Source: a virus (taxonomy: Duplodnaviria > Caudoviricetes). Taken from it: DNA of 25,446 bases. The notes beneath the pieces were generated by a model, which saw only the letters and a list, made by a program, of their open reading frames with translations, was not told the origin of the DNA and searched no databases. A program made the translations under genes and the position numbers. The stretch lies in the IMG/VR virus record IMGVR_UViG_3300027963_000311, positions 1-25,446 of that record; one strand, written 5' to 3'. Below are positions 8,422 to 20,073 of the stretch, one piece after another. How positions within the stretch are numbered: the first letter of the stretch is position 1; the number at the start of each line of letters is the position of its first letter.

Positions 8422-9978
8422 CTACGATGCAGGATTCACACCATACACGAATGCTTCAGCCTGCGTCACGTCACCACCCCAACGTACCGTACAGAAAATG
8501 GCAGTCTGATAATTCGCCTGGTACAGGTATGGATTGCGGCTGATTTCCAAACCAAGATTTTCCACAAATGCATAGTAATTGAAGTTACCAAACAAAATGG
8601 CCTTGGCACTGGCCCCCAATGCGGCAATTTTATCAGACACTGCCACCGGTTTGGTATACAGGCTGTTCATATCACCCATAGGGGTTGGTTGGAAGCTAAA
8701 GAAATTGCCAGTGAGTGCACGAATGGCCCCAAGCGTGGTGTTACGCATTACCCAACCAACGCTGCTGGTATCGTCTGCATACCATTCAGGCAATTTGTGT
8801 ACGATGTTGAGAATATCGCTAGCGTCAACACCAGATACACTAGCCAACGTTTCCGAAACAGTGGCACGTGCCAAAATACCATAAGGTTGTGACGATCCCG
8901 TACCAACCAATTGATAGTTATTCAAGTGGCGTGCATATGCGCGTCCTACTTCGCGTGCAATGAATCCTTCAAGGTCCATGGCTTGATCACGCAACAATTG
9001 ATTTGAAATCTTCATACCCAATGATGCAGTGTAGATGGTGATGGCACTGCCAGCAAAGGTTGGTTCATCTTCGTTGAATGCACTCGATTCAGCAACAAAT
9101 GCAAAATCCGATTTTTCATCTTGATTTGCAATGTTGAAGATTTGGCCACTGGTGGTGTAGCGTTGCATAGGAAGCTTGGCACCAATCCAGGTTTCGTCAC
9201 GGCGATCCGTAATTTGTTTGGCATAGTCTTGTGGCACTAAGAAACCACCGTTTGCATTGGTGCCTTCTACTAATACGGCCTTGGCAGCGATTTCGTCACC
9301 AGTACGCATCCAGTGTTTAAGTGCATCCATTTGGTCATTGCTGTTACCCATGGTGGTAAGCTTTTTGGTAGCTGGTGCATTGCCTGCAATAACGCCACCA
9401 CCTTTTACAGGTTCGCCTGCCATTTCTTCGATGGCGGCCTTCACTGCATCCTTAATGATTTGGTCTGACATGGTTGTAGATTCCTTTGATGTAAGTGTGT
9501 GTATATTGCTACTGGTATTTGCAGGGCCGCTGTTGCCAGCCTGTGGCACTGCCTTCATATCAGAAATAGCCATGGTTCGTGGTTCTGCTGGTGTAGGGGT
9601 TAAACTAATTTCTCCTACAATCCAGCGTTTCAATTCGCCACCATCACGCACCACCAAATGTGATAGTGCACCTGTAGATAATCCTAGCACACCACGTTTT
9701 ACCAGTGCCATCACCTGCTGTGCATATTTGTGGCGTTTGTCAATTTCAATATCAACATCGATGCCTTCGCTATCAGGCTGCCACATCTTCACCGTGCCAA
9801 TTTGTGACTGCAAATCTGATAGGCCGTGATCATAATACACTGGCATGCCAACGAATGATCGTGTATCACCAAAATCTGTTTGTGCAGTGAATCGATCCCC
9901 CGTTAAATCTTTGCCACCAAACACCACGCCACGGCCGCGTACCACATATTCTGATATTTGTTTGACTGCATACTTCAT
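8422..9978 (-). CDS. Fused HK97-type prohead protease + major capsid protein
   Basis: N-terminal ~145 aa with YYDHG, GLSTG and EISLTPTPAEPRT protease motifs; C-terminal GGFLVP, FVAE, GTGSSQPYGIL, ILFGNF capsid motifs; no stop between them. Confidence 0.93.
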   Translation of the reverse strand: MKYAVKQISEYVVRGRGVVFGGKDLTGDRFTAQTDFGDTRSFVGMPVYYDHGLSDLQSQIGTVKMWQPDSEGIDVDIEIDKRHKYAQQVMALVKRGVLGLSTGALSHLVVRDGGELKRWIVGEISLTPTPAEPRTMAISDMKAVPQAGNSGPANTSSNIHTLTSKESTTMSDQIIKDAVKAAIEEMAGEPVKGGGVIAGNAPATKKLTTMGNSNDQMDALKHWMRTGDEIAAKAVLVEGTNANGGFLVPQDYAKQITDRRDETWIGAKLPMQRYTTSGQIFNIANQDEKSDFAFVAESSAFNEDEPTFAGSAITIYTASLGMKISNQLLRDQAMDLEGFIAREVGRAYARHLNNYQLVGTGSSQPYGILARATVSETLASVSGVDASDILNIVHKLPEWYADDTSSVGWVMRNTTLGAIRALTGNFFSFQPTPMGDMNSLYTKPVAVSDKIAALGASAKAILFGNFNYYAFVENLGLEISRNPYLYQANYQTAIFCTVRWGGDVTQAEAFVYGVNPAS

Positions 9979-11306
9979 TGATTCATTCCAATCAGCTGGC
10001 GTGCAAAATCTCGCACTGATTTGGCCATCTCATCACGCCATGCCTGTGGCAGTGCTGCAACAAAATCTGGTCCTTTGCGTTTGGCCAGTGCAATTAGTTT
10101 TGCCTTAAATTCCTCAAACGTTACATCACCTTTATAACGGCCCCATGTTGACACTGCTGCTGGCACATCATCTGGTGTAACAATTGGGAAGTTTCGTGTA
10201 TCAGGTAATACAAAATCACCTGCTGGCATTGCTTCGCGTTCTTTTGGCGTGGCGTTGCGATCAGCAGCAGTGCGAATGGCCATCATTGCATCAGGTTCGT
10301 ATTCGTACATTTGCATGCCAACAGGTTCTGCTGATTCCTGCATTGGTGTTTCTGCCAGCTCTTGTACATCCATTGGTTCTGCCATCATTACAGCACGCAA
10401 TTGCCAGCGTAATTTTTGATGGTACATTAAACGGTCCTGCAAGAAGTTTTGCACGCCATATTGCATCACTTCACCAGCCATCATGATTCCACCATTGATG
10501 CAGTCAATGATGTACAGGTTATCCATGCTAATGCTGGCAATGAGTACATCTAGTGAATCATCAGCAGTGGTGGTATCGATTGGTTGGTGCATGGCTAATT
10601 GAAACAACGTTGCTGGTGCCTTGTAATCGAGTGCACGCAATGTTTCGGCAATGCCATCAATCGCATCATCAAGTGCTTCATAGATTTGTTCAAAAAATGC
10701 ATGGTATTGTGGAAAATCTTCACCTTCCACATTCCAGTGTGCAGCGTGTGTTTTGTATTGCAAAAATACCGTATTGGCTAATACTTTGCATACTTCCATG
10801 GCCAAATCATCTTGTGTGGCTTTTACTGCCTTCATTGGCACTGCTGGCACCATTCCCATCATTGGTGATGGATTTGGCATACCATCATCACCCAATGCCA
10901 CCATGTGATTTACCAAATCTTGTGCAGTTTTGCGTGCAGTGCGAATGATTTTCATATCCGCTTCAGAGTGTCTGCTACCTGCTTTTACTTCCATCTTGTT
11001 TATCTCCTTCAAAATCGATTGCACCCAATCCCTGCCTGCATCGCCACCCCAACCATGCCATGCCTGCCAGCCACGGCCCTGATCATTCCATGTGCTGCCT
11101 TGTTTATCCACTGCATGGCGTGCAAAATAACTTGCCATGCGCTGTACTGTGTCGAGTGATACAGGTTCCCTATTCGCCAATTGCCGTGCACGTGCCAACC
11201 CAACCAACGTCATGCCACGTGCACTTGCAGGTTTTGATTCGCGTACATCAAGTGCCATCTGTGCATTGCGTGCCACGTCTGCTGGTGGTCTGTACGTATC
11301 TGCCAT
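9975..11306 (-). CDS. Multidomain head-region protein containing a Dps (ferritin-like) domain
   Basis: ATG 11306 with AAGGA SD. N-terminal phage head-associated domain (GLARARQLAN...RMASYFARH...WGGDAGRDW), KAGSRHS segment, central Dps domain, C-terminal ER..MP.GDFVLP..R.FPI domain (DUF6582-like). Stop overlaps capsid ATG (ATGA). Confidence 0.88.
   Translation of the reverse strand: MADTYRPPADVARNAQMALDVRESKPASARGMTLVGLARARQLANREPVSLDTVQRMASYFARHAVDKQGSTWNDQGRGWQAWHGWGGDAGRDWVQSILKEINKMEVKAGSRHSEADMKIIRTARKTAQDLVNHMVALGDDGMPNPSPMMGMVPAVPMKAVKATQDDLAMEVCKVLANTVFLQYKTHAAHWNVEGEDFPQYHAFFEQIYEALDDAIDGIAETLRALDYKAPATLFQLAMHQPIDTTTADDSLDVLIASISMDNLYIIDCINGGIMMAGEVMQYGVQNFLQDRLMYHQKLRWQLRAVMMAEPMDVQELAETPMQESAEPVGMQMYEYEPDAMMAIRTAADRNATPKEREAMPAGDFVLPDTRNFPIVTPDDVPAAVSTWGRYKGDVTFEEFKAKLIALAKRKGPDFVAALPQAWRDEMAKSVRDFARQLIGMNQ
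10390..10811 (-). other. dps: Dps / mini-ferritin domain
   Basis: KTHAAHWNVEGEDFPQYHAFFEQIYE...IDGIAETLRAL...HQKLRWQLRA; H192, H204, E208, D219, E223 (track numbering) have the spacing of the Dps ferroxidase ligands (Listeria H31, H43, D47, D58, E62). Confidence 0.92.
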
Positions 11307-11330: not shown

Positions 11331-11798
11331 TTACGAAAATGCATCTTTTACGGCCTGATCTACCACTGATTTAATCTTGCCACTATCTTCCATACGCTTG
11401 GCTATTTCGTCAGTGGTTAACCAACGGCCCTGATGTATTGGTGCCTGCTTATTGCCAATTACATACTGTGCATAGCTGGCAGTGCTTACTGCCTGTGCTT
11501 CTGCAATAGTGCCACGTAGTACCAGGTAGCTTCTATTCAGCTTCTGTGATTTGCCTGCACCACGGCCGCGTACATACGGTATTTGGATTGTGCCCTTCCT
11601 ATACCCTGCCATTACAAACTTGCGCTGCTTATCACTGACAAATCCAGGTGCACTGCCACGTGCTGGCGGTGGTGGGTCGTTCAGAATTAGTTCAGTTACT
11701 GCAAGGCCTGCCACCACTGGCAATACATCTTGCTGTAATTGTCTAACCTTCTCGATTAGATGCAGTGTGGCGTTCTGTACTTCAATGCTAAATGCCAT
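11331..11798 (-). CDS. Virion morphogenesis protein (HK97 gp10 / Mu gpG-like)
   Basis: SQKLNRS, STASYAQYV.G, Q...H..RW motifs; located directly after the MuF domain. Confidence 0.65.
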   Translation of the reverse strand: MAFSIEVQNATLHLIEKVRQLQQDVLPVVAGLAVTELILNDPPPPARGSAPGFVSDKQRKFVMAGYRKGTIQIPYVRGRGAGKSQKLNRSYLVLRGTIAEAQAVSTASYAQYVIGNKQAPIHQGRWLTTDEIAKRMEDSGKIKSVVDQAVKDAFS

Positions 11799-13859
11799 CT
11801 ATTCACCTGGCCCTATGATTGGTGATTCCACCAACACTAACGCAATAGCACACCTGCAATTTACGTGTGCTGGTGGCCCTGCAGTCACTTCTACTGGCCA
11901 TTGTGCCTGCAGTAATCCATCATAATCTTTGCAGTCATCACAGATGGTTGTGTCATTTTCTGCAATCCAGATCATAGTGGTATTGATGCCAGCCTGCAGT
12001 GCCTGATTCTGAATGGCAAACGTTTGCTGTGCTGCAGCTCGTGTGGGTTCAGTGAATGCAATGCGTTGTGCACGCAAATCACCAAACATGGCTAATTGAT
12101 TGCGAATATCATCAACGGTAATGCCAACCGTGGTTTGTGCGTTGGTAATTACACTGCTGATGTAATCACGTTCAGTGGCTGATAGGTCCTGCAGGAAGGG
12201 TTGCCAGTAACTATCAATATAGGTATTCGCCTGATTGGCAATGCCTTGTTTGATAATCTCATCTCCTACAACATCAGCCATGCCAGGTATGGTGCGAATG
12301 CGTTCTGCACCTGCATCTAATACCAGCTGTGCCACATTGTCTGTAAGCACGTCACGCAAATCCGTGTCAATGGCTGTATAGTCACCATTGGCAATTGCTT
12401 CTGCATTCTTATCACTCCGCGCTGCTAACTTCTTGGCTATGGCGTCGTACACCTTGCGTTCAGCTGGTGTGAGATCAGCCAATGTGAGTGCCTTTATAAA
12501 GTGAAACACGTGACCTATATCACTCTTTTTTTTTACGCCTTTTAGTTCTGCATAGATAAAATCAGTCATGTATCGTGGCAGTGTATCTGATTCAAACGTG
12601 GCAGCAGCATTGCCTTTTTGTTTGTAGCGTTTCACGACCTTGCGTTCGTATGCTTCCAAGTCTGCAAGTCTACTGGCCTGTACTGCTTTTACATCAGTGA
12701 GTGATTCATCAACAATTTCTGCACCTGTATCAACGTTGATACCAGTCACATCAGGGCCAGTGGTGGTAGGTGGCACGCCAATTGCCTCATCAATGTTGTC
12801 ATAGCCTAGAATTTTCATGGCACTGCCAAGTGGTATGCCAGCCTGTACCAACTGCAGTAGGCTGCCAGCTCGTTGTGCTTCGTCTGTTTGAAATACGTCT
12901 AACGTTTCAGGAGTGAAATGCATTTTGTATTTGAGTGGTGCAAATACCTGTTGATTTAGTACACGTTGATAAAATGCCAACCGTGGCACAATGGTTTCAC
13001 GCCAAAATGATTGGCGATCACTATCAGCCGTGGCATAGTTCGCTGCACTTGCTTCTAGCATGGTACGTGGCACGCCAAACGTGGTAGTAATGTTGGTAGT
13101 AACGCGTTCTTGCAGTGGTACAAGTTCCATATCTTTTAACGGAAAGGTAAGAATTTGGGTTTTAACATCGCCACGAAAAAAGAAGGTTTTGAATGCATTC
13201 GAAACATTCTCTACACGTGACCGCCAATCAGATTTAAGCCGTTCATATTCTGGTGGCGTAATGGATTTGTCTAGACTCATGATTACTGCAGGCTGTGCAC
13301 CATGTTCAAAAAATGCACTGGTAAACCGTTCCAGATAATACGCAAGCTGTGCAGATTGCAGTGCTACACCTGCTGGTGCAATGCCGCCGTATACATCATC
13401 TCTAATCGATGGTTCGCGCCAGTACACAATTTCATCAATAGTCCAAGGCCCGTATATCTTGCCATTGATGTTTTGGCTAAATCGAATCCCCGTCATTACG
13501 TTGTCTGATGTTTGCAATTCAGGTTTGTATTCAACCTGTACTGATTTAGGATTCAAGAATTGAAACCCGTACAATACACGGCCACGATATAAGCGCAACC
13601 AAAATGCAGTGCCAGTTAGGAGTAGTGCACGTTCTGTTTGCTGAATCAGTGAATCCATTGGCGTGGCAAATGGATAATCAACGTTCACATCATTGCGTTC
13701 CAGTACAAATGGCACGGTGCCTAGCGCGTCTGATCGCAAATTGATAGCACGGTATAGCATTGGCACTTTTTCGTATGCATCAATGGTGCCGTATAATTCG
13801 CCAGCCTTCTTGGCAACACTGTACCAACCTGGTATGGCCTCGATCGCTTTATAAGTCAT
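11799..13859 (-). CDS. Portal protein fused to a C-terminal MuF / SPP1 gp7-like head morphogenesis domain
   Basis: HK97-type portal motifs (LLLTGTAF, YGGIAP, FFEHGAQP, FGVP..L, NYATA, FWRETIVP); C-terminal RAQRIAFTE..RA, W....D...C..C, PPAHVNCRC MuF signature. Confidence 0.92.
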   Translation of the reverse strand: MTYKAIEAIPGWYSVAKKAGELYGTIDAYEKVPMLYRAINLRSDALGTVPFVLERNDVNVDYPFATPMDSLIQQTERALLLTGTAFWLRLYRGRVLYGFQFLNPKSVQVEYKPELQTSDNVMTGIRFSQNINGKIYGPWTIDEIVYWREPSIRDDVYGGIAPAGVALQSAQLAYYLERFTSAFFEHGAQPAVIMSLDKSITPPEYERLKSDWRSRVENVSNAFKTFFFRGDVKTQILTFPLKDMELVPLQERVTTNITTTFGVPRTMLEASAANYATADSDRQSFWRETIVPRLAFYQRVLNQQVFAPLKYKMHFTPETLDVFQTDEAQRAGSLLQLVQAGIPLGSAMKILGYDNIDEAIGVPPTTTGPDVTGINVDTGAEIVDESLTDVKAVQASRLADLEAYERKVVKRYKQKGNAAATFESDTLPRYMTDFIYAELKGVKKKSDIGHVFHFIKALTLADLTPAERKVYDAIAKKLAARSDKNAEAIANGDYTAIDTDLRDVLTDNVAQLVLDAGAERIRTIPGMADVVGDEIIKQGIANQANTYIDSYWQPFLQDLSATERDYISSVITNAQTTVGITVDDIRNQLAMFGDLRAQRIAFTEPTRAAAQQTFAIQNQALQAGINTTMIWIAENDTTICDDCKDYDGLLQAQWPVEVTAGPPAHVNCRCAIALVLVESPIIGPGE
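12520..12534 (-). other. A9 run / A AAA AAG slippery site followed by -1 frame stop (GAG TGA)
   Basis: GGC GTA AAA AAA AAG AGT GAT at portal codons ~441-447; -1 frame stops at 12522-12520, +1 frame stops a few codons later (GTG ATA TAG). Confidence 0.65.
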
Positions 13860-13881: not shown

Positions 13882-15099
13882 TTACATAAAATCATACATT
13901 ACGCTACCATCGCCTAACATGGCATTGGCACCACTCACTGCATCCACCATATCATCATGGCTGCCATACGGGAATGCCACAGACTCATCAATGAATTGCT
14001 GGCACCATTCGCCACGCACCACGCGAATCATATTCTGTTCAGCTCGAGCGGCCCATGGCATAGCGCGATGCATCTTATCCTTTGTGACGTGATAGCCAAC
14101 CAACGTAACGTGTGCTAATTCCTGCATGCGTCGCAATTCCTGCAGGCCTGCCAAACCATGCAGTGCTTCCTCAACACCTTGCGTGGTATCGTCTGCTTCT
14201 GATCGCATTACATCGATCATAATCTTGCGTACATCTGGCCATTCAGCCTTGATGCGTATGCCATCAGCAATGTACATGATGCCATCATCTGCCATAGCCA
14301 CACGCACACTAGCAGTATAGTCTGCACTATCTCGCACACTGGTGGCCAAATCCCAATAACGATACCACTGCAGGTTTGGTGGTGGTGCGTCTACTAACGT
14401 AAACCACTGACGTTTGAACAGTGCACCAGACAAATCAACAAACTGGCCGTTTGCTTCCTGTTCAAACTGTTCACTCGTATAACTTGTGCGTAACGTGTGG
14501 ATAAATGAATCGGGCAAAAATACATTGTCTGTGGTTTTGCTATGTATCACTGCATAATCAGGATTACTGCTGCCATGCCACAAATCGTATATCCAATTAC
14601 GGCCGCGTGGCGTGGTAGTAATCCATGCCTTGCCTGGCATTTCGCGCAACGTGGCAATGGCAATCTGCCACGCATCGATGTGCATCATGGCTGCTTCGTC
14701 AAACCATATCCAACCAAGATTGGCACCACGCAAGCGATCAGGATTGTCTGCACTCCTTAGCAATATTGTTCTGTTGCCATGCAGCACAATAGTGCCTGTG
14801 CTGATGTTATGCGTTTTAAGTATGCCAGCAGGCCGTGCAATATCTAATAACATCTTGCGTGGTCCATCACGTAGCATTGGGTATGTTGGCGCAACGATCA
14901 TGCCAGTGCTATTTGGTGGCATGCGTAGCACTTCGATTACACCAGCTCTTGTCTTGCCACTGCCACGGCCCCCAATAAAGGCCCGAAACCGTGCTGTGCT
15001 ATTCCAAAACATCTCCTGTGGTTTCGTACACTCGCTGTGGCGTAACGTCCTGTATTGTATTTGCGTTGTTGATGATTGCTGGTACACGTGGCGTGCCAA
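13882..15099 (-). CDS. terL: Terminase large subunit
   Basis: Walker A GGRGSGKT, LRGANLGWIWFDEAA, TTTPRG.NW, nuclease WDLA and FPYGSHDDMVDA. Exact start uncertain. Confidence 0.95.
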   Translation of the reverse strand: MARHVYQQSSTTQIQYRTLRHSECTKPQEMFWNSTARFRAFIGGRGSGKTRAGVIEVLRMPPNSTGMIVAPTYPMLRDGPRKMLLDIARPAGILKTHNISTGTIVLHGNRTILLRSADNPDRLRGANLGWIWFDEAAMMHIDAWQIAIATLREMPGKAWITTTPRGRNWIYDLWHGSSNPDYAVIHSKTTDNVFLPDSFIHTLRTSYTSEQFEQEANGQFVDLSGALFKRQWFTLVDAPPPNLQWYRYWDLATSVRDSADYTASVRVAMADDGIMYIADGIRIKAEWPDVRKIMIDVMRSEADDTTQGVEEALHGLAGLQELRRMQELAHVTLVGYHVTKDKMHRAMPWAARAEQNMIRVVRGEWCQQFIDESVAFPYGSHDDMVDAVSGANAMLGDGSVMYDFM

Positions 15100-17085: not shown

Positions 17086-17126
17086 AATAAAAACAGCCAT
17101 GTATACATATAGTATACATGGCTGTT
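17086..17126 (-). terminator. Intrinsic terminator separating middle genes from the lysis/late operon
   Basis: Perfect 15-bp IR aacagccatgtatac (17092-17106) / gtatacatggctgtt (17112-17126), ending in TTTTTATT on the minus strand. Confidence 0.8.
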
Positions 17127-18285: not shown

Positions 18286-18551
18286 TTGCCTATTACTGCA
18301 TTGATTGCATCATCAATGGTTTTTACTACCACTGGTGCACGGCCGTTCCATTCTCTATACCACTGCTCTTGCCTTACATTGGGTTTGCCTTTGGTCTGCT
18401 TCACTTCGAGTAGATGCGTTACGCCATGAAACCCTACCAGTAGATCAGGCACACCGCTGCCTACTTTATGCAATAGCACTACGCTGGCCCCAATCTGGCG
18501 CAATGCCTGCACAATCTCGTTTTGATTATGGTCTGTTTTAGCGTTTCTCAT
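18282..18551 (-). CDS. VRR-NUC family nuclease (Holliday junction resolvase-like)
   Basis: D.NQ.EIVQALR..G, G.PDLLVG, LLEVK, Q..W PD-(D/E)xK motifs; start at ATG 18551 (ATGA overlap). Confidence 0.88.
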   Translation of the reverse strand: MRNAKTDHNQNEIVQALRQIGASVVLLHKVGSGVPDLLVGFHGVTHLLEVKQTKGKPNVRQEQWYREWNGRAPVVVKTIDDAINAVIGN

Positions 18552-19660
18552 AAATTTCTTTGCAACTCCTTTAGTAATTCGGTATACATGCCAGTGGCCT
18601 GGCACCAGCTGATGATTTCACTACGCACAAAATAGCCATGCATGCTACACGTAGATTTTGGGAATCCGTATGCCTTCTGCAAGTGGCCTAATTTGCCTTG
18701 ATACTCACCAATCATATGCACTACTTCATTACGGTATATATAGTGATGATCCCATTCACTAGCAAAATCACGCCACCATAAATAGTTTGGCATTTGTGGC
18801 GTAATCTTGCGTGGTAGTACATACCTGTAGTGCTTCAGCCACTCGCACACTGCATCACGTCTGTACAGATTGCCAATGCCATATCGATGGATATACATCA
18901 GCACTTCAGGCACGACACGGTTTGGCCACTCTTGACGCGCTGCATAATCCATTACTTTTGGTGCATAGAAATTGATTTCTTTATTTGATATATATTCCTG
19001 CATGGCATTGGCGTGTATCTCCTTTAGCCAATAGGCACACTTGCTTATATCCTCGATGCGAAATATATTCCCTGCTATCAGCCATTCATAGAAATCTACA
19101 GGATTCACTGTGACGTTGCGTGTGGTTCGCACCAGTGTTGATTTCAGGCCTAGCTGTTGGTACCAGACGCGCACCTGTTCACGTGCCATGTGCGTATCAT
19201 TGGCAATATCCTCGACACAATAGCCAATCATTGCTGATGATCGAATGCCTAACTTTTTTGTACGAATCTGTACGGCCGCAATGGTTCTGCCAAGCTTTTG
19301 TGCAATCACTGGCCACGGTTCCTGAAACGCCATAAACAGCAAATACTTTTCTTCTTGTGCAGTCCATGGTTTGTAATCGACAATCAAATCAAATTTGTGC
19401 AGCCAGGTATACACGGTATCTGACACACACCCTAATTCTGTTGCAATCTCCTGTGCAGTGAATTCTTTTTTGATGTAGTGCTGCAGTACATGCTTTTTTG
19501 TCCATGGTGGCGTGTTATCGAATTTGTGTAACTTTAGAAACCGTTGCAGCGCATGGCCACCAACCTGCAGTATTTTGCAGGTGCCACGTATGCCGTGCTG
19601 GCGTACTAAATCAAATACGGCCTGTGGTTCCATATCGTGTATTTTGCTTCTAATACTCAT
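18548..19660 (-). CDS. Multi-HTH DNA-binding protein
   Basis: TAQEIATELGCVSDTVYTWL, WTAQEEKYL...IAQKLGRTIAAVQIR (Myb-like), YCVEDIA...VRVW, GFPK...YFVRSEIISW (excisionase/AlpA-like). Start probably ATG 19660 (ATGA overlap). Confidence 0.7.
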   Translation of the reverse strand: MSIRSKIHDMEPQAVFDLVRQHGIRGTCKILQVGGHALQRFLKLHKFDNTPPWTKKHVLQHYIKKEFTAQEIATELGCVSDTVYTWLHKFDLIVDYKPWTAQEEKYLLFMAFQEPWPVIAQKLGRTIAAVQIRTKKLGIRSSAMIGYCVEDIANDTHMAREQVRVWYQQLGLKSTLVRTTRNVTVNPVDFYEWLIAGNIFRIEDISKCAYWLKEIHANAMQEYISNKEINFYAPKVMDYAARQEWPNRVVPEVLMYIHRYGIGNLYRRDAVCEWLKHYRYVLPRKITPQMPNYLWWRDFASEWDHHYIYRNEVVHMIGEYQGKLGHLQKAYGFPKSTCSMHGYFVRSEIISWCQATGMYTELLKELQRNL

Positions 19661-20073
19661 GATAGGCATTCCAGTGTATCAAGTGCGTGTAATTTGTCTT
19701 GTAGGGCCTTGCACGTGTCCTGCAATTGCAGCACTGCTGATAGTGCATCGCCCTTGCGTTTGGTGGCTGCAATACGAATAGCAAAATCACTGTGTGCCAA
19801 TCGATGTGCGGCCATTGCTTCTGTAGTGTTGCCAGCTCGTGGTAGATTAATTTTGATTTTGTAGATTGCATCAAATCTGGCAGTGTCGTTATCACTTAGT
19901 CGTTCGATGTTACTCGCCAGGCCATCACCAATCACTGCCAGCATTGTTTTGAGTCTGGCACGCACTGCAGGTACATTGTTGCGACAAAATCCACATAGTG
20001 GCACGCCATCATCATTTGGCATGAATTGATCACTGCAGCCAATGCACTCACTGTTCAGTCGTAACTTGTTCAT
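19657..20073 (-). CDS. Zinc-finger (CxxC-x11-CxxC) plus helical hypothetical protein
   Basis: CIGC...LCGFC at N-terminus; AAGGA SD. Confidence 0.7.
   Translation of the reverse strand: MNKLRLNSECIGCSDQFMPNDDGVPLCGFCRNNVPAVRARLKTMLAVIGDGLASNIERLSDNDTARFDAIYKIKINLPRAGNTTEAMAAHRLAHSDFAIRIAATKRKGDALSAVLQLQDTCKALQDKLHALDTLECLS

Follow-up and report, generated by a model that had tools for sequence, protein, structure and literature searches.

Organization of the locus

The window analysed here, the entire 25,446-base virus record IMGVR_UViG_3300027963_000311 (CheckV completeness 89%), carries a gene in which a Dps mini-ferritin domain is embedded in a larger modular protein encoded among phage head genes. 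On the minus strand the order is terminase, portal-MuF, a 155-amino-acid (aa) gene, the 443-aa Dps gene, protease-capsid, adaptor and tail genes. The Dps gene (9975..11306, minus strand, as are all features given in this section) encodes an N module, an M module, a slot holding the Dps domain, a C module and a tail helix. Specifically, the N module (residues 1-105; 10992..11306) is basic (pI ~9.9), belongs to the unnamed family phrog_2859, and yields no sequence match in the Protein Data Bank (PDB) when used as a profile. The M module (residues 106-143; 10878..10991) is a short basic helix, with Lys108 before it as a predicted protease site. The Dps domain occupies residues 166-310 (10377..10811) in a slot whose contents can be swapped, as described below. 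It is followed by the C module (residues 343-429; 10020..10280) and, after Lys429, by a C-terminal amphipathic helix (residues 430-443; 9978..10019) that is a candidate prohead-docking signal. An AlphaFold model of the 443-aa protein, built from a 28-sequence alignment (mean pLDDT 70.5, pTM 0.41), contains three folded units with low-confidence linkers between them.

The C module is called DUF6582-like as a lead only. An earlier note, made from the sequence of this DNA, had pointed to that family, yet a Pfam scan of the 443-aa protein does not find it; DUF6582 appears below the cut-off in 3 of 26 homologs and is carried by 13-29% of members in ESM Atlas clusters.

Upstream of the Dps gene lie the terminase large subunit (13882..15099) and a portal fused to a MuF domain (11799..13859), both recognized by Pfam and PHROG, and then the conserved 155-aa gene (11331..11798), in which the motifs YxRG and QaxIHxgRW are invariant. 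The earlier note had placed the Dps gene between portal-MuF/gpG and protease-capsid genes. Its position stands, while the label gpG for the 155-aa gene does not, because that gene has no family match, including in Pfam and PHROG. Downstream, a single gene (8422..9978) encodes a prohead protease, a short delta region of ~70 residues and an HK97-type major capsid protein, with a predicted maturation site after Lys233. The shell is assigned to the HK97 fold by PF05065 (E 5e-41) and TIGR01554 (E 1.7e-52), and our searches found no close named relative of this capsid. His51 and Ser101 of the capsid-fused protease are invariant and are presumably catalytic. The stop codon of the Dps gene overlaps the start of the protease-capsid gene as ATGA, just as had been noted before, and the same overlap recurs in 31 of the 38 related loci in which the next gene is visible. 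A scan of the window for promoters and terminators returned signals no stronger than those in shuffled sequence.

Most of the window DNA is present in one freshwater metagenome run, and related pieces occur in two other freshwater studies. Contigs from four runs cover the Dps gene piecewise, none of them spanning the whole stretch. An assembly chimera is excluded by four complete copies of the same architecture on other contigs, at 93-98% identity. A scan of genome contigs for Dps returned only two ordinary Dps, both in metagenome-assembled genome (MAG) fragments.

A Dps domain with a conserved ferroxidase site

The slot domain matches the Pfam Ferritin family (PF00210) over residues 175-306 with an E-value of 8.2e-16 and a score of 58.7 bits against a cut-off of 24.5, and its best sequence match in the PDB is P. 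aeruginosa Dps (8ff9; E 1.5e-14). In the AlphaFold model, the middle unit is a four-helix bundle with a short BC helix; among Dps structures, S. aureus Dps (2d5k) gives the highest template modelling (TM) score, with a target TM of 0.91 and a root-mean-square deviation of 1.8. UniProt annotates a relative (A0A6J7WLL1) as Dps. These matches bear out the complete Dps domain that the earlier note had described, and they dispose of its concern that a ferritin-family hit might be lacking.

The ferroxidase residues H190, H202, E206, D217 and E221, at a spacing of 12-4-11-4, are encoded together with W191 in the stretch 10644..10739 (minus strand). Their canonical spacing had been recognized earlier under the numbers 192-223, which count from a TTG two codons upstream; numbering from the ATG gives 190-221. 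Among the 36 fused members of the lineage to which the window belongs, H190, H202, D217 and E221 are retained in all, W191 in 35 and E206 in 20. The domain is also under strong purifying selection. Across four close relatives, nonsynonymous divergence (dN) is 0.003-0.006 against a synonymous divergence (dS) of 0.10-0.35, and comparison with a more remote locus (L081) gives a dN of 0.13 and a dS of 1.26, two more distant pairs being saturated. A pseudogene is excluded by these ratios.

The BC-helix fold, here predicted, and the His-His-Glu/Asp-Asp-Glu site are shared with cellular Dps proteins (P. aeruginosa PA0962, 8ff9; S. aureus, 2d5k; B. anthracis Dlp-1, 1ji5). The phage version differs in being embedded in a four-module protein, in its acidic core and in the absence of an Arg after the last site Glu. 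By sequence and model, then, the five-residue site, the Trp and the fold are those expected of a Dps mini-ferritin, whereas the missing Arg is not.

Alternative contents of one slot

A homolog search returned 571 proteins, of which the best-scoring 120 (243-776 aa) were combined with the query to count modules. In 80 of these 121 proteins the slot is filled by a four-Cys domain resembling high potential iron-sulfur proteins (HiPIP-like). Another 23 have an intact Dps there and 5 a degenerate one, and the remaining 13 contain neither. A close relative (L012) illustrates the exchange: its DNA agrees with the window at 88% identity across 5.7 kb upstream and at 91% downstream, and is non-homologous between approximately 10933 and 10283, where it encodes the four-Cys domain. 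These positions give the approximate limits of the cassette (10283..10933, minus strand). In 8 of 45 lineage loci both are present together, as a free 142-aa Dps gene directly before a gene of the form N-M-(HiPIP-like)-C, one of the eight being cut after M. The swap in L012 and the eight loci with both indicate that a single genomic place can host two unrelated iron-binding folds, alternately or together, the cluster of the HiPIP-like domain being a prediction.

That prediction relies on motif and profile. A His-Tyr pair, CxxC, C and CxxW recur in the HiPIP-like domain, and its four Cys, Tyr and Trp are invariant in 16 of 16 members. When its profile was compared with the PDB, the HiPIP 3h31 ranked first (E 5.5e-4) with all four Cys aligned; PioC and 1hpi matched more weakly, and besides 3h31 the top four included two HiPIP-type chains. 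A model of the domain has low confidence (pLDDT 59), and fold searches with it were uninformative. We therefore call the domain HiPIP-like and regard it as a putative 4Fe-4S module.

The 13 empty slots of 121 indicate that slot content is dispensable, and they exclude an essential scaffold role for the slot. By estimate, ~1,200 IMG/VR stretches match the Dps pattern and ~1,100 the HiPIP-like pattern, such that both modules seem to be common among viral sequences. The appearance of Dps as a cassette in a swappable slot, occupied in most relatives by a HiPIP-like domain, is to judge from these comparisons what is new here.

Degenerate Dps domains (L042:2298-3614, L044:3873-5189; P0023-P0026, P0036) have gained several Cys and His residues, possibly forming a different metal site.

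Fixed position and fusion to head proteins

Gene order was scored in 45 lineage loci, with near-identical contigs kept in the counts; 9 were not scorable upstream and 7 not downstream. The 155-aa neighbour is kept upstream in all 36 scorable loci and the protease-capsid gene downstream in all 38. Within its lineage the gene keeps an unvarying place in the head module.

The modules of this protein are also found attached to head proteins elsewhere. Cultured phages and haloviruses carry the N module within portals, prohead proteases and capsid proteins, other matches being annotated as hypothetical or otherwise, and in IMG/VR loci it stands at portal-like C-termini. In three of the six long Dps proteins found outside the lineage (P0136, P0137 and P0140) Dps is fused to Peptidase_S78. 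A quick tree built from 81 Dps domains places these three in a clade apart from the lineage (SH-aLRT 98), which makes it likely that fusion arose more than once; another long fusion, P0135, has a Dps from the window lineage. A viral structure library likewise contains uncultured phage proteins of 290-679 aa named Dps or ferritin/DPS. For the HiPIP-like domain, 40 open reading frames (ORFs) from other phages were chosen from 80 loci after removal of the own lineage and near-duplicates; 18 of them carry a prohead protease and/or capsid domain, and 6 a capsid domain. A related arrangement occurs in the Actinomycetia phage DSL-LC01 (OQ999401.1), where N, C-like and HiPIP-like modules lie inside genes annotated as capsid maturation proteases and a head-region neighbour is annotated, in the database only, as a 'high potential iron-sulfur protein'. 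This phage differs in its 129-kb genome, and no Dps match to the window protein was reported for it.

The fixed head-module position, together with the fusion of these modules to portals, proteases and capsids, speaks for a protein inside the virion rather than for an early auxiliary gene of the ordinary kind. The earlier note had leaned the same way, and that part of its argument holds up; what it missed is that Dps is one interchangeable and dispensable content of the slot.

Fusions to enzymes of other kinds were also seen. Dps or HiPIP-like domains are joined to Zeta-toxin-like kinase domains in P0139, L188:3617-5203 and L235:3590-5695, and HAD phosphatase fusions with these modules occur in P0140 and L238.

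Module borders and the tail helix

M modules are preceded by Lys in 78 of 83 cases and by the initiator Met in the remaining 5. Since Met stands where Lys otherwise does, a cut after Lys would give an N-terminus identical to that of the free form. Shortly ahead of the Dps domain a Lys is likewise present in 28 of 28 proteins, and the delta|shell border of the capsid is Lys-Ala/Thr in 27 of 27. The motif of the C-terminal amphipathic helix is present in 82 of 121 homologs by a strict regular expression, with or without a slot or C module.

In other phages (L045, L046, L050, L055, L065) the residue that precedes the N module, or the beginning of another module, seems by eye to be lineage-specific (Asp, Lys, Phe or Leu), as would be expected if prohead proteases differ in specificity. 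Separately, residues ~160-182 before the Dps domain of P0028 and P0030 resemble the end of the capsid delta region, with 8 of 17 residues identical and, for P0030, a weak E-value of 0.27, a weak hint that Dps may lie there behind a capsid-like processing signal.

A proposed role as internal head cargo

The interpretation that follows builds on observations, namely the Dps sequence with its predicted fold, the conserved site, the fixed position, the HiPIP-like swap and the module fusions; docking, cleavage, retention and chemistry are the steps that we infer. Our preferred reading, held at slightly less than even confidence, is that the 443-aa protein is a modular head-region protein, likely a dispensable internal head cargo, that binds Fe(II) and damps peroxide damage beside the DNA. 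Its parts differ in strength: packaging of the protein in the phage head is likely, and an iron- or peroxide-buffering function, if the protein is packaged, is somewhat favored.

The protein would be synthesized late, its translation coupled to that of the protease-capsid gene, and would dock in the prohead, for which it would probably use the C-terminal helix, kept across all architectures. The prohead protease would then cut after Lys at the N|M and M|Dps borders and before the tail, with K108, K159/K162 and K429 as the expected positions, as is predicted for the delta|shell border of the capsid; N and Dps(-C) would stay behind in the head as folded pieces. Dps subunits might pair there, as dimers or cages, to form inter-subunit iron sites at which the retained protein would bind and oxidize Fe(II), and so lower hydroxyl-radical damage to the packaged genome. 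In relatives, the 4Fe-4S module would serve a comparable iron or redox role.

A precedent for such a pathway is provided by the internal proteins of phage T4, which are described as bearing short targeting propeptides, being trimmed by the prohead protease, and being retained in the head (PMC9026906). As there described for IPI-III and Alt, the shared elements of the proposed model are non-essential cargo, a short targeting peptide, protease trimming and content that varies between related phages. The window system departs from T4 in its HK97-type head, its candidate signal at the C-terminus, its predicted cut after Lys and its metal-domain cargo; the likeness is functional, and no sequence similarity is claimed.

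Several observations weigh against this reading. At the borders, Lys precedes the C module in only 50 of 100 proteins, and the window protein has Arg there. The Lys motif is moreover unspecific, because three of its seven occurrences in the 443-aa protein lie inside domains, and its frequency in 18 other window proteins is 0-1.4 per 100 residues; the conserved Lys borders could also reflect shared descent. The Dps core is acidic (pI 4.4) and the N and M modules are basic, such that any DNA binding would need these N-terminal modules, and protease cutting would separate them from Dps. Pfam HIPIP (PF01355) matches 9 of 16 HiPIP-like members, with a best E-value of 0.0028, below the cut-off. No cultured phage of the lineage was found: of 36 matching records, none covers 80% of the protein. 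Finally, in the five degenerate Dps members the ferroxidase residues are lost and yet the bundle persists, indicating that catalysis is not always what is selected.

This last observation would suit a protein in which the slot domain is mainly an oligomerizing or metal-stabilized hub of an accessory scaffold, with redox chemistry incidental. The short capsid delta region and the retention of the tail helix while the slot varies point in the same direction. Such a hub is nevertheless improbable given the empty slots of 13 relatives and the invariance of catalytic positions in all 36 intact fused members, apart from E206.

A further contrary point concerns Thr222, which stands where solved cellular Dps have an Arg after the last site Glu (E221). 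The Arg is present in the five PDB Dps chains compared and absent from 36 fused members, 4 free lineage members and 6 other fusions. It corresponds to E. coli R83, which we take to be needed for the 12-mer, a role for which our literature search found no source. Its absence bears most directly on the strong form of the earlier note, in which a complete Dps dodecamer would serve as an iron store inside the capsid, like the ferritin-like cargo of encapsulins. The full predicted Dps fold, including the BC helix, would permit such a cage, and position 282, which aligns with an acidic residue of solved Dps, is acidic in 30 of 36 members, though it is Gln here. Most relatives, however, use a small HiPIP-like domain that is incapable of forming it, and we regard the dodecamer store as highly improbable.

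The encapsulin-like label itself survives as an analogy only. Family 1 encapsulins, including IMEF systems with ferredoxin (PMC8346489), resemble the window locus in that the gene for an HK97-fold shell adjoins one of the ferritin superfamily, whose C-terminal signal is here a candidate. IMEF systems and this lineage also share an Fe-S partner, which in the lineage is the putative HiPIP-like module. Encapsulins are curated such that phage neighborhoods are excluded (PMC8346489). A true encapsulin is excluded here because the PF05065 shell is a real phage capsid that lies in a full morphogenesis operon with terminase, portal, protease and tail genes.

Could the protein act in the infected cell instead? 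If it were not packaged in working form, it might accumulate late, bind iron in the cytoplasm and protect replicating phage DNA or the host until lysis. Many other phages do carry free Dps genes, which lie in late or mixed regions, and published work interprets phage Dps genes as host-protecting enzymes (PMC8008677, PMC6669764). In 37 representative loci, out of 61 with free phage Dps, the gene lies between terminase genes in 7 and beside cytidylyltransferase genes in 12, adjoining the same small modules in only 3. Such settings count against head cargo, because they suggest that late expression without packaging may be enough; a head context is evidently not required for a free phage Dps. The eight lineage loci with a free 142-aa Dps, which is without the tail helix, are also in keeping with a cytoplasmic role. 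The earlier note would have given up its proposal had Dps occurred as a free gene in variable locations; this is so among unrelated phages, whereas within the lineage the free Dps of these 8 of 45 loci is found in the same place. Stand-alone phage Dps (Gratiaviridae, Lactobacillus phages, Synechococcus phage S-EIVl; PHROG 3636) belong to the same protein family and are described as free and host-acting, and unlike the window Dps they are neither fused nor located in the portal-capsid interval. A cytoplasmic role leaves unexplained why the Dps, HiPIP-like, N and C modules have repeatedly been joined in one polypeptide with proteases, portals and capsids, as well as the Lys borders shared with the capsid, and we consider it unlikely.

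Among these free genes, T4-like phages carry a 144-aa Dps gene between the small and large terminase genes (L113, L121, L134, L140, L144, L149, L151). The twelve loci with Dps beside cytidylyltransferase-like genes (L099, L101, L108, L109, L118, L120, L129, L130, L137, L145, L148, L155) also contain clusters of small unnamed repeated domains (phrog_727, 4689, 11180 and others).

Alternatively, the protein might be packaged and its Dps or Fe-S module then enter the next host with the DNA, quenching an oxidative response or supplying iron to a cell that is short of it. Ejection is described for the T4 internal proteins (PMC9026906), and MuF and portal fusions are proposed as routes of effector delivery by Iyer et al. 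2017 (PMC5512222). The polyvalent and MuF-fused effectors treated there resemble the window protein in being multi-domain, shuffled, located among late genes and predicted to be packaged; their domains are mostly conflict enzymes, and the main text mentions neither Dps, HiPIP nor iron. Cassette exchange between phages that are 88-91% identical also resembles the behavior of host-interaction genes. On general grounds, however, an iron-loaded oligomer could traverse a siphovirus-type tail only by unfolding or shedding its metal, and no ejection signal was identified in the protein, such that ejection is in our judgment distinctly unlikely.

Returning to internal head cargo, the arrangement is conserved and widespread, and it may be an iron-related form of the head cargo that prohead proteases process. 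A broader proposal, which we put forward more tentatively, is that a widespread aquatic phage group uses protease-cleaved fusion cassettes to fill its heads with an iron module that can be exchanged, a Dps ferroxidase in some members and a HiPIP-type 4Fe-4S domain in others. If true, virions would themselves take an active part in handling iron and redox chemistry, protecting their DNA against Fenton reactions and carrying iron from host to host, and the encapsulin principle of cargo in an HK97 shell would already exist in working phages. If the protein is packaged, iron chemistry would take place within the virion, with a bearing on survival of oxidative decay in water and on the amount of iron in phage particles. 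The Dps/HiPIP-like swap offers a natural comparison for testing the head-cargo role, and the cargo gene with its protease-capsid gene, both small and lying side by side, is a possible source of a new cargo-loading tag for HK97-type shells. Our literature search, with few subscription journals covered and supplements (e.g. of PMC5512222) outside its scope, found no publication on Dps or HiPIP as phage head cargo.

Other features of the window and its relatives

In several related loci (L081:1889-4789, L082:2051-5059, L011, L018, L044) the portal-MuF protein has a variable C-terminal extension of ~280-330 aa that the window protein is without. In L081 and L082 this extension contains HExxH, suggesting metallopeptidase-like cargo. 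Elsewhere in the window, a strong 15-pair hairpin followed by a T-run (17092-17126, minus strand) lies just upstream of lysis/packaging genes, in a region that related loci match separately. Positions 18548-19669 encode a 373-aa protein with repeated helix-turn-helix domains and a PHROG match to a D5-like regulator.

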